Below are positions 59,501 through 61,016 of a stretch of DNA of 64,000 bases, piece by piece. The notes beneath the pieces were generated by a model, which saw only the letters and a program-made list of their open reading frames with translations, was not told the DNA's origin and searched no databases. The stretch spans positions 768,001 through 832,000 of the forward strand of contig OZ242184.1 of NCBI GenBank assembly GCA_965205855.1, in the 5' to 3' direction. How positions within the stretch are numbered: position 1 is the first letter of the stretch; every line of letters begins with the position of its first letter. This stretch comes from Thermodesulfobacteriota bacterium. GTDB taxonomy: Bacteria; Desulfobacterota_D; UBA1144; Nemesobacterales; Mycalebacteriaceae. A program made the position numbers and the translations under genes.

Positions 59501-61016
59501 CGACTTTTGACAGCCTGTATTTGGAAGGATTGAAAAACATGTCCGAAAAAAAAGTTCTCGCGGACTCTTTGCTCGGCGGATCGGTCGGCCGGAATTTTCT
59601 GTATATCTCCGCTATTGCCCCATCGCAGAAAACCTCGATTTCTGCGCCGATTTTACGAAAGCCGTTTCTAATATCATCTGCGGCTTCGGATGTCAGGTTT
59701 TCAAAGCATATTTTCTCTTCGGCCTTTGTTTTTCCCTTTGTTACGGAAGGGTAAGTTTTTGACATGGTTTTCAGGATTTTAAAAAACGCGGATTTATCAG
59801 CCTTGCCCTGCTGAACATTTACGGCGAAGGTATGGTTGATTGAATCACCATAAATCCTTTTTTCTTCAAGCAGGGTATCCGCCACCGCAGAAGGAATTGA
59901 AATATCGTCAATATAGTAAAAGGAAAATTTATCCACTGAATTTTGCCTGATGGCATTGATGGTCTCAGACGTTATCTTCTCTCCAAAGCGCGCAATTATC
60001 TCACCGCTTTTTTTGTTGACAATATTTTCGGCGCATATCTTTTCATAGAGTTCAGATTCGTTTTCAAGTAGCACCGTGTCTATTTTTAAGTTTCTCAGTC
60101 TCTCAAGAATACTCGGCGTAAACTTTCTTCTCTTTTTTAGAACAACCTCATTTCCTCTCTTTATATCAAAGGAGCTTTTCTGATAAAGAATCGTCTCAGG
60201 ATTTATCTCTTTTGACAGCCCGCCGTTTTTTTCAAACCTGACCGTTTCAATACTGTAGAAATGATCCAGTATCTCCCTCTCGGTATATCCTAGGGCTTTA
60301 AGAAAAAGAGAGATATGGAATTTTTTTCTACGATCAATCCGCACATTGAGAAAGTTTTTTGAATCAAAATCAAAATCAAGCCATTTGCCATCTTGAGGAA
60401 TAACCCTTGCAACAGAGGACGATTTGACGGAGGACTGAGGCTGGTCGCCAAGTTTTGGACTATCAAACAATACACCGGGGGAACGATGTATCTGATTTAC
60501 AATTACCCTTTCGGCGCCGCTTATTATGAAGGAGCCATTTTCGGTCATCTTGGGAATTTCACCGAAATAGACATCCTGTTCAATTACATCCCGGATATTC
60601 TCTCCATCTTCTTCCCGCACTATCAGACGCAACGTAACATAGAGCGAAACCGTATAGTCGTAGCCCTTAAGTCTGCATTCAGTCTCGTCAAGCCTGGGTT
60701 GTAAATCATAAATTTCGTGTCCGTTTTTGTCTTTGACGGCATTTCCATCTTCATCAACAACTCTTTGTCCTAGACTGTAGTGCACAAAATCAAGCGATGT
60801 TTTTTCACCATAATTCTCTATGGGAAAGATTGCCTTAAACACAGATTGCAATCCGTAATCTCCCCTTTGGGAACGTTTTTCAGACTCCACTTTTTCCTGA
60901 AGAAATCTCTTATAGGACTCAGTTTGGACATTCAAAAGATTCGGAATATCCAGAATTGCCGGTATTTTTGAAAAAGTCTTTCTCAATTTAGAACTATGCG
61001 TTGTTTGCAAACTCAA
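56574..61016 (-). CDS. rpoB: RNA polymerase beta subunit with an L7/L12-CTD-like insertion
   Basis: DDIDHLGNRR, SQFMDQ.NPL, ETPEGPNIGL, GDKMAGRHGNKG, GGQRLGEMEVWAL; probable TTG start at 61016 after GGAGGGG. Confidence 0.98.
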   Translation of the reverse strand: MSLQTTHSSKLRKTFSKIPAILDIPNLLNVQTESYKRFLQEKVESEKRSQRGDYGLQSVFKAIFPIENYGEKTSLDFVHYSLGQRVVDEDGNAVKDKNGHEIYDLQPRLDETECRLKGYDYTVSLYVTLRLIVREEDGENIRDVIEQDVYFGEIPKMTENGSFIISGAERVIVNQIHRSPGVLFDSPKLGDQPQSSVKSSSVARVIPQDGKWLDFDFDSKNFLNVRIDRRKKFHISLFLKALGYTEREILDHFYSIETVRFEKNGGLSKEINPETILYQKSSFDIKRGNEVVLKKRRKFTPSILERLRNLKIDTVLLENESELYEKICAENIVNKKSGEIIARFGEKITSETINAIRQNSVDKFSFYYIDDISIPSAVADTLLEEKRIYGDSINHTFAVNVQQGKADKSAFFKILKTMSKTYPSVTKGKTKAEEKICFENLTSEAADDIRNGFRKIGAEIEVFCDGAIAEIYRKFRPTDPPSKESARTFFSDMFFNPSKYRLSKVGRKKLNYRLKHNVDEAILTLTREDIVKTLQYLLELKGGRRSGDDIDHLGNRRVKTVGELIEATFYSGLERFARSVKERIGYQSIENKMPREIVVPKVVDTIVKDFFKTGQLSQFMDQTNPLSEITHKRRLSALGPKGLTRERAGFAVRDVHSSHYGRICPVETPEGPNIGLISSMSTYAEIDVYGFIRAPYRIVRNGKVTDEIVKMSALEEEEKNIVIAQANAPLDGDGRFQLDFVSSRSEGEIKMVEKDKVTHMDVSPSQLVSISASLIPFLEHDDANRALMGSNMQRQAAPLIRAVAPLVGTGLEASVSRDSGVAVIARADGEVIHSDSKIIVVKNSKASQRSIPSSGSGVEIYKMIKFRKSNQGTCWNQTPIVLRGQKIKKGQVIADGPSTKNGELALGQNTMVAFMPWGGYNFEDAILISERIVKDNIFTSVHVEEFECQARETKLGREEITRDIPNISDEALKNLDESGIIRVGATVHMGDILVGKISPKGEMQLSQEEKLLRAIFGDKARDVKDTSLKSRSTIIGTVIDVKVLTSRAVADKDSRAKEIEIQEVEKIKQEMDYEKNILQQSARETVESLLKGVKAAASVTVKNNKLVSKGDSFTSEILKSLSLEEIKNIKIESKKLTERIKTVVDSIIGEINALQLRYEDKKKKLEQKDDLSPGVLKTVKVYVAVKMNLQVGDKMAGRHGNKGVISRILPQEDMPYMEDGTPVDMVLNPLGVPSRMNVGQILETHLGGASKEIGKQLNEYIETNYGTDAIKNKLKEVYGNSGNVSFIDKMTDEETRDFVKSLKDGVPVASPIFDGATEKEIKGFMKIAGLSDDGKMILYDGRTGEPFDQKVTVGIMYMLKLHHLVEEKIHARSIGPYSLVTQQPLGGKAHYGGQRLGEMEVWALEAYGAAHTLQEFLTVKSDDVAGRTRMFTSIVEGRMSLDPGIPESFNVLRKELQSLGLKIDLLSSNDEELDLRAVKT

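Follow-up and report, generated by a model that had tools for sequence, protein, structure and literature searches.

An insert resembling the C-terminal domain of ribosomal protein L7/L12 in the beta2 lobe of RNA polymerase from a genus of Thermodesulfobacteriota

The stretch of DNA analyzed here, referred to as the window, comprises 64,000 nucleotides from a Thermodesulfobacteriota bacterium (positions 768,001 to 832,000 of contig OZ242184.1, assembly GCA_965205855.1; genome of 1.40 Mb in one contig). It includes an operon with the gene order rplK, rplA, rplJ, rplL, rpoB, rpoC, as read from the list of open reading frames (ORFs) and from the Pfam domains of their products. The element under study is a segment of 77 amino acids inside the product of rpoB, the beta subunit of RNA polymerase, which resembles the C-terminal domain (CTD) of ribosomal protein bL12 (L7/L12). 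The rpoB gene lies at 56574-61049 on the minus strand and encodes 1491 amino acids when translated from the TTG at 61049 given in the ORF list; the Rpb2 domains 1, 2, 3, 45, 6 and 7 were all matched in the protein (Pfam, E-values of 1e-19 to 1e-130). The stored database copy of this RpoB (P0002) has 1470 amino acids, and the true start may be located 21 codons further in than that TTG. Directly upstream of rpoB, the rplL gene (61094-61486, minus strand, 130 amino acids plus stop) codes for bL12, with matches to PF00542 (98 bits) and PF16320 (49.7 bits), and its CTD is encoded by positions 61097-61300 (minus strand). The ORF listing stretches rplL upstream to an ATG at 61570 (158 amino acids; additional part 61487-61570, minus strand); this extension is probably not translated, to judge from the orthologues, which begin at MADLTKEE (position 61486, 130 amino acids).

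The original prediction placed a string of 67 amino acids at 59628-59828 within RpoB, and the translation of the minus strand matches it exactly. It also described an extra segment of about 75 residues, and a comparison with RpoB proteins of the same order has revealed 74 extra residues, since the span from YYID to KFRP measures 111 residues in the window protein and 37 in the others. The RpoB proteins of other families of the order read YYIDK..LLSDKVDSCEEAI.EIYKKFRP over this site and have no counterpart of the additional sequence. The insert has been defined as 77 amino acids (59628-59858, minus strand; RpoB residues 398-474), consisting of an N-terminal connector RIYGDSINHT (59829-59858, minus strand), which has no L12 counterpart in the insert alignment, and the 67-residue core (59628-59828, minus strand). 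When the two flanks were placed on solved RpoB chains from the PDB, the alignment of AIAEIYRKFRP began at E. coli beta residue 362 and AVADTLL fell on Pseudomonas residues 351-357, so that the insertion site is equivalent to about residues 352-361 of E. coli beta. The beta2 lobe covers E. coli beta residues 152-443, and the C-terminal connector of the lobe insertion betai4 (SI1) covers residues 337-345 (PMC2939025). The site is therefore inside the beta2 lobe, about 7-10 residues past the betai4 connector, and it lies six to nine residues ahead of the lobe arginines R368 and R371. The gate loop spans about residues 368-376 of E. coli beta. R371 is a lobe residue that, in RfaH complexes, makes contact with the hairpin of the non-template DNA (PMC11001881).

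The insert is kept in the genus to which the window belongs. With a query of 117 amino acids it was matched in four of five other genomes of the genus (G001-G004), with 54-64% identity. The fifth genome (G005) is uninformative, because its rplL lies 150 nucleotides from a contig end, a 300-amino-acid query with the conserved flanks matched nothing and the assembly does not include that part of rpoB, and the insert is thus counted in four of four assembled cases. In 35 genomes from other families, the same query matched the conserved C-terminal flank alone, and no insert was found. A search of 5.8 billion proteins with the insert returned four proteins, all from the same genus, and searches of genome contigs (2 loci) and metagenome contigs (1 locus) gained no new sequence. 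In a profile search of 1.84 billion cluster representatives the single match was P0006, an acidic repeat protein of 2862 amino acids, which was rejected as an artefact of 15 weak stretches summing up; the RpoB proteins of the genus are missing from this search probably because the RpoB cluster at 50% identity is represented by an insert-free sequence.

The gapless alignment of the 67-residue core with the last 67 residues of the L12 encoded upstream, which had been proposed with 13 identities, has been reproduced (13/67, BLOSUM62 score of 54). None of 20,000 shuffled inserts reached this score (-46 +/- 17, maximum 23), 33 of them reached 13 identities, and the next-best register scored 3. By contrast, BLASTP of the insert against the same L12 gave no alignment at E<=100, and the likeness is accordingly visible only at the level of profiles or of a fixed register. 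Profiles were therefore built from the inserts alone, that is, from five sequences. With all filters off, the insert hidden Markov model (HMM) was compared with all stop-to-stop ORFs of 50 amino acids or more in the six frames of the genome (n=13,102). RpoB itself ranked first and rplL second (15.2 bits, E 0.019), while the third match had an E-value of 2; the rplL match spans the whole CTD in the same register as the gapless alignment. Leave-one-out profiles placed rplL second in all five cases (E 0.033-0.36), including the profile from which the window sequence had been removed.

The same specificity was found outside the genome. Against 177,635 distinct PDB sequences, the ten best matches of the insert profile were all L7/L12 chains, as were 11 of the 14 matches at E<=10, and no chain of EF-G or of the ACT, RRM, HMA or PII families was found at that threshold. 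The crystallized L12 CTD itself (1ctf_A) was matched with an E-value of 0.0027 and 21.5 bits, profile positions 10-71 aligning to chain residues 7-73. A comparison of profiles with hhalign against 12 L12 CTDs of the order gave a probability of 79% (P 1.5e-5) and a score of 30.3, to be compared with 10.4 +/- 2.2 (maximum 17) in 300 column permutations, and at a low maximum accuracy (MAC) threshold the alignment was gapless across 68 columns. Restricted to the four L12 CTDs of the own genus, the probability rose to 87% (P 3.8e-6, 66 columns). The insert HMM scored 7.2-22.2 bits on the 12 real L12 CTDs, whereas 4,800 shuffled sequences scored 1.8 bits on average with a maximum of 14.8 (8 reached 10 bits and none reached 15), and reversed sequences did not exceed 1.8 bits. 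The four own-genus CTDs scored 22.2, 20.9, 18.8 and 15.6 bits, the first three being the best values of all, and those of other families 7.2-17.9 bits. A language-model search of the ESM Atlas, taken as a lead only, listed a PF00542-bearing cluster at rank 4 (score 0.80). Numbered from the 1CTF alignment of the insert profile, the equivalents of A63, K65, K70, E96, K107 (as R), L110 (as F), G114 and A115 of L12 are invariant in the five inserts. The insert has, in summary, a specific profile-level similarity to the Ribosomal_L12 CTD over the whole domain.

A series of results weighs against this reading. The gathering cut-off of Pfam for PF00542 is 25.9 bits, and the 77 residues of the window insert obtained 13.8 bits (E 0.076), far under it; no PF00542 match was found at E<=10 in the other four orthologous inserts, so that the Pfam check suggested with the original prediction turned out against it, with one of five orthologues matching. 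In a six-frame PF00542 search of 21 genomes the window insert, alone among the orthologous inserts, appeared with 12.6 bits (E 0.23) amid noise-level matches, PF00542 was not listed in a Pfam scan of the 117-residue segment, and a narrow HMM of the L12 CTD gave only 4.7 bits on the insert. When single inserts were used as queries in place of profiles, rplL ranked 3, 13, 86, 45 and 6 in the genome. The alignment is also shallow, with a depth of five sequences and no further ones in three collections.

The predicted structure does not single out L12 either. Two AlphaFold runs were carried out from the five-sequence alignment, with the 77 residues of the window insert and the 71 residues of the G002 insert as targets. 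Both models, with a mean predicted local distance difference test (pLDDT) of 74.4 and 75.7, respectively, are four-stranded beta-alpha-beta-beta-alpha-beta plaits, whereas the L12 CTD in 1CTF has a three-stranded beta-alpha-alpha-beta-alpha-beta topology; one element differs, the second helix (GLGLKEAK) being replaced by a strand. Foldseek searches against the PDB with the two models returned de novo ferredoxin folds and ACT, PII-like, HMA, YebC and Cas2 structures, with best E-values of 3e-3 and 2e-2, and in neither search was there an L12 chain among the matches listed through rank 50. The resemblance to the L12 CTD stood, then, in the genome, PDB and hhalign profile comparisons; it did not reach the Pfam cut-off, and the structural check that had been proposed for it did not single out L12.

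These models speak for a rival reading, in which the insert is an unrelated ferredoxin-like plait, for instance a relative of EF-G domain III, and its likeness to L12 reflects convergence of alpha/beta domains rich in lysine and glutamate. The topology predicted in both runs is exactly that of such a plait, the Foldseek matches are generic plaits only, with EF-2 and EF-G chains at ranks 20, 22, 35 and 40, and the insert of G001 matches PF14492 (EFG_III) with 20 bits (E 7.3e-4; 18.9 bits in the six-frame search), which also counts against an L12 origin. Nevertheless, the strand that defines the plait is the least confident part of the model (mean pLDDT of 60 over residues 41-50 and below 50 at residues 43-45) and coincides with the only loop in which the orthologues carry indels; connector residues 1-7 of the window model are also below 50. 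The de novo designs at the top of the Foldseek matches suggest an idealized prediction from a shallow alignment. The EFG_III match concerns one of the five orthologues and is below the cut-off of 27 bits. With hhalign, EF-G domain III of the own genus gave a probability of 0.7% and a score of 13.0, within the null distribution (9.6 +/- 2.1, maximum 18.3), although this alignment is narrow (5 near-identical sequences, effective number of sequences of 1.1) and hence tests the relationship less well than a broad Pfam model would. The insert HMM gave at most 2.2 bits on EF-G III and LepA domains, and the PDB-wide profile search in which L7/L12 chains dominated contained no other plait family. Identity with EF-G domain III was rejected at the profile level, and convergence of an unrelated plait is considered unlikely.

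The preferred reading is that the insert descends from an L12 CTD while falling short of membership in the family, to which we assign a probability of roughly 0.65. An old local duplication of rplL had been suggested as the source, and such a local origin is plausible: L12 proteins of the own genus hold the three best insert-HMM scores and, as described below, another genus of the order bears an L12 CTD in its RpoB. Here we infer homology, a local-duplication origin and the function of the insert. According to the proposed course of events, the 3' half of the adjacent rplL, which encodes the L12 CTD, would have been copied into rpoB in an ancestor of the genus, a group of small-genome Thermodesulfobacteriota. 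Strong divergence would have followed, with retention of the hydrophobic core and of the C-terminal beta-alpha-beta part (FENL...IR..F..IGAE.EVF), while the second L12 helix (GLGLKEAK), within the factor-binding face, would have become shorter and changed its structure, perhaps to that of a beta strand. The beta2 lobe would as a result carry a small folded alpha/beta domain at its surface, near lobe arginines that are oriented towards the non-template DNA and the NusG site.

The rate at which the insert changes bears on whether it is of any use to the polymerase. The orthologous inserts are 41-54% identical to that of the window, 18 of the 77 columns are invariant among the five sequences, the frame is kept and indels are confined to one loop. 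The nonsynonymous divergence (dN) of the insert is 0.39-0.69, that is, 4-6 times the value of 0.09-0.12 found elsewhere in the N-terminal 930 residues of RpoB. The proportion of nonsynonymous differences (pN, 0.30-0.45) is well below that of synonymous ones (pS, 0.70-0.92), which are saturated in all 10 pairs and leave no usable dN/dS ratio. In frame, between conserved flanks, restricted to one clade and less conserved than the core of the protein, the segment has the properties of a lineage-specific beta insertion. The fast change and the restriction to one genus would be expected of a tolerated passenger without a function of its own, whatever its origin, and E. coli tolerates deletion of its insertions betai4 and betai9 with no more than slight defects in growth (PMC2939025). 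Several observations argue in the opposite direction: the frame is intact in all four assembled species despite the saturation of synonymous sites, and core positions, two surface lysines and the connector that has no L12 counterpart are all invariant. In the connector, five of the ten positions are the same in the five orthologues (R1, Y3, G4, N8 and T10), and R-Y-G-x-x-N-x-T-F is the best conserved stretch of the insert in spite of its absence from L12, which suggests that it packs on the lobe. Moreover, the genomes are small (1.2-1.6 Mb), and useless sequence would tend to vanish from them. A mere passenger thus appears rather improbable.

On the ribosome, EF-Tu, EF-G, IF2 and RF3 dock at the L12 CTD, and the original prediction proposed that the insert might recruit translation factors to the polymerase. 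The factor-binding face of the L12 CTD, formed by helices 4 and 5, reportedly consists of K65, V66, I69, K70, R73, L80, E82 and K84 in the work of Helgstrand et al. 2007. The assignments made for the window are correct, the equivalents of K65, K70, R73 and K84 being K, K, K and K and those of V66 and I69 being S and F. Among the relatives the face is not conserved as a whole: of these residues, the equivalents of K65 and K70 alone are the same in all five orthologues, the position of R73 reads K/G/K/A/S, that of V66 S/E/N/A/S and that of I69 F/S/S/S/L, and the segment with the L80, E82 and K84 equivalents is deleted in three of the five. The GLGLKEA segment had been described as diverged, and its helix is indeed lost; KIQVIKxVRExxxLGLKEAKxLV, the most conserved motif of L12, corresponds to the least conserved part of the insert. 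The retention of only two factor-binding residues, the deletion and the loss of this helix weigh against full L12 membership as well.

A module that keeps the L12 surface and brings EF-Tu, EF-G, IF2 or RF3 to RNA polymerase would agree with the invariance of the A63, K65 and K70 equivalents, with the service of the L12 CTD as a common binding site of the translational GTPases (PMC10931766) and with an insertion site that adjoins lobe residues facing the NusG-binding cleft. It is difficult to reconcile with the variation and deletions just described, with a net charge of the domain that swings from +3 to -6 between orthologues and with the elevated dN. Retention of the surface is for these reasons very doubtful, and little in the sequence speaks for the proposed recruitment, which is possible but unsupported. 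The two invariant lysines leave room for a putative residual binding surface. On the working view, the insert would serve, like other beta inserts, as a decoration or docking site specific to the lineage, close to betai4 and the gate-loop region, rather than as a binding site for translational GTPases kept from L12.

RNA polymerase chains were not found among the matches listed through rank 50 in either Foldseek search, and E. coli beta is present in hundreds of PDB entries. That the insert is a further BBM2/BEAN repeat extending the neighbouring betai4 can practically be dismissed, even though betai4 lies just upstream and occurs with one to six BBM2 repeats in different bacteria (PMC2939025), and even though most of the lineage-specific beta inserts examined in a 2024 survey were assigned to BEAN (PMC11515920), because hhalign against the betai4 region of seven RpoB proteins (four of the genus and three of other families) gave 0.8% (P 0.068), where that survey used more than 70% as its HHalign criterion for BBM2 similarity (PMC11515920), and because the conserved lobe segment SAVADTLLEEK stands between betai4 and the insert; BBM2 identity was accordingly rejected at the profile level.

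The reading of the insert as a diverged L12 CTD gains interest from a second and clear case in the same order. A six-frame survey with PF00542 covered the order (101 genomes, 99 of them with a match), and two matches above the cut-off fell inside RpoB frames of about 1460-1490 amino acids, with 47.0 bits in G014 and 47.5 bits in G024 (locus L042), two genomes of one genus that belongs to another family than the window. In G014 the embedded domain lies on the minus strand at L030:1486-1719 (locus L030, G014:C1:239031-242246), and its sequence, SYTVALKQIGEDKNKVIETVKEVAGLGVKGAKDL...AAGATVEIS, is located between RLIVWDV and IREIKEQEVYFGE, at a site equivalent to about residue 110 of E. coli beta, presumably in the beta1 or protrusion region. 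The segment matches T. maritima L7/L12 with an E-value of 4.2e-9, keeps most of the helix 4/5 motif, K..VI..V(K/R)EV..LG.K..K(D/E)L, and obtained 17.1 bits with the insert HMM of the window genus. A stored RpoB of 1481 amino acids (P0007), 91% identical over the domain, bears a precomputed PF00542 annotation. Judged by sequence, the G014/G024 domain is unmistakably an L12 CTD, and again it is confined to one genus. The rplL gene is directly upstream of rpoB in both the window genome and G014; the window protein has no insert at the G014 site and G014 none at the window site, and the two cases are read as separate insertions. It could be imagined that the RNA polymerase of one order has twice captured the stalk domain, preserved on the beta1 side and diverged on the beta2 lobe, and that both copies have kept the ability to bind translational GTPases, or some other partner of the stalk, in a hard-wired link between polymerase and translation, but this is a long shot.

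Other features of polymerase and L12 genes were found in these searches. The RpoB frames of G012 and G026 measure 1603 and 1555 amino acids, compared with about 1402 in other members of their genus, and look like cases of further lineage-specific inserts in the same order. Downstream of rpoB in the window, the rpoC gene of the same operon (51644-56554, minus strand) encodes a beta' subunit of 1636 amino acids with about 260 extra residues, rich in lysine, glutamate and alanine, at roughly residues 150-410 within Rpb1 domain 1; Pfam recognizes this domain in two separate stretches, of which the second begins at residue 410, and the extra residues have no match to any Pfam family at E<=0.01. A noise-level PF00542 match (13.9 bits, E 0.09) is present at G000:C1:424320-424433 (plus strand), in a 677-amino-acid frame outside the window, and is slightly better than that of the RpoB insert itself. 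Partial PF00542 matches of 22 and 21 bits, covering about positions 10-39 of the profile, occur at G016:C88:689-778 and G017:C5:210795-210872, in frames of 32 and 94 amino acids away from rplL, and they may be fragments of L12 CTDs or small L12-like ORFs.

A word-based search aimed at long proteins that contain a canonical L12 CTD gave 35 proteins, none of which carries RNA polymerase domains, which is weak evidence. P0008 and P0009 (315-322 amino acids), P0017, P0020, P0023 and P0027 were among the long proteins found. Some of those with PF00542 only score about 200 bits against the 68-residue CTD query, and such proteins would probably hold several tandem L12 CTDs; one long protein is named ribosomal protein L7/L12 in a metagenome-assembled genome of Myxococcales. 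L10-L12 fusions (PF00466, PF16320 and PF00542) and a few odd fusions were also present among the 35.

Lineage-specific inserts of bacterial RNA polymerase are well known, and those of the beta subunit have been catalogued mostly from one module. In agreement with the original prediction, for which no described example was known, a full-text literature search found no paper describing an L12 domain within RpoB. The 2024 survey of insertional domains reports that most beta inserts are BBM2/BEAN and points to neighbouring genes as a possible source of domains; its main text has 0 occurrences of 'L12', and its supplementary tables, including the 'type 4*' architectures with additional insertions, could list one (PMC11515920). 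With the L12-like domain, a new type of domain joins those known from RNA polymerase inserts. If its proposed origin is correct, RNA polymerase would have drawn a decorating domain from a new source, the ribosomal stalk protein of the adjacent gene, and the insert would show clearly how an insertional domain can come from a gene nearby, a possibility raised for BEAN and uL10 (PMC11515920). The occurrence of L12-type domains at two RpoB sites in two genera also turns the coupling of transcription and translation into a testable question, which would be better addressed with the well-preserved copy of the other genus, while the window copy shows a long-diverged state.

Among known systems, the closest is the bL12 CTD itself (PF00542, 1CTF). 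Both have a core of 67-68 residues, gapless in the window, the same order of structural elements except one, as predicted for the insert, equivalents of F54, A63, K65, K70, E96, G114 and A115 and a closing GAE-x-EV strand. The insert differs in lacking the N-terminal dimerization domain and the hinge, in being embedded in RpoB, in its score under the Pfam cut-off, in the loss of the GLGLKEAK helix, predicted as a strand, and in a factor-binding face that is mostly not kept. The RpoB proteins of G014, G024 and P0007 share with that of the window an L12 CTD-type domain inside beta, in the same order and within a single genus, whereas the G014/G024 domain exceeds the Pfam cut-off, keeps the helix 4/5 motif and occupies another site. 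With EF-G domain III (PF14492) the insert has in common the topology predicted by AlphaFold and the 20-bit match of one orthologue, but neither a similarity at the profile level nor an EF-G chain in the PDB profile search. Like E. coli betai4 (SI1) and the BBM2/BEAN inserts, it is a lineage-specific surface domain on the beta2 lobe that is less conserved than the core, and, unlike them, it belongs to a different domain family and has a separate insertion point. A loose parallel is offered by mitochondrial MRPL12, which is reported to promote transcription through POLRMT (PMC12523095) and is also an L12-family protein tied physically to an RNA polymerase; there a free protein acts in trans on a single-subunit phage-type enzyme, while in the window the polymerase is a multisubunit bacterial enzyme, and what appears to be a diverged CTD, and no other part of L12, is built in cis into its beta chain.

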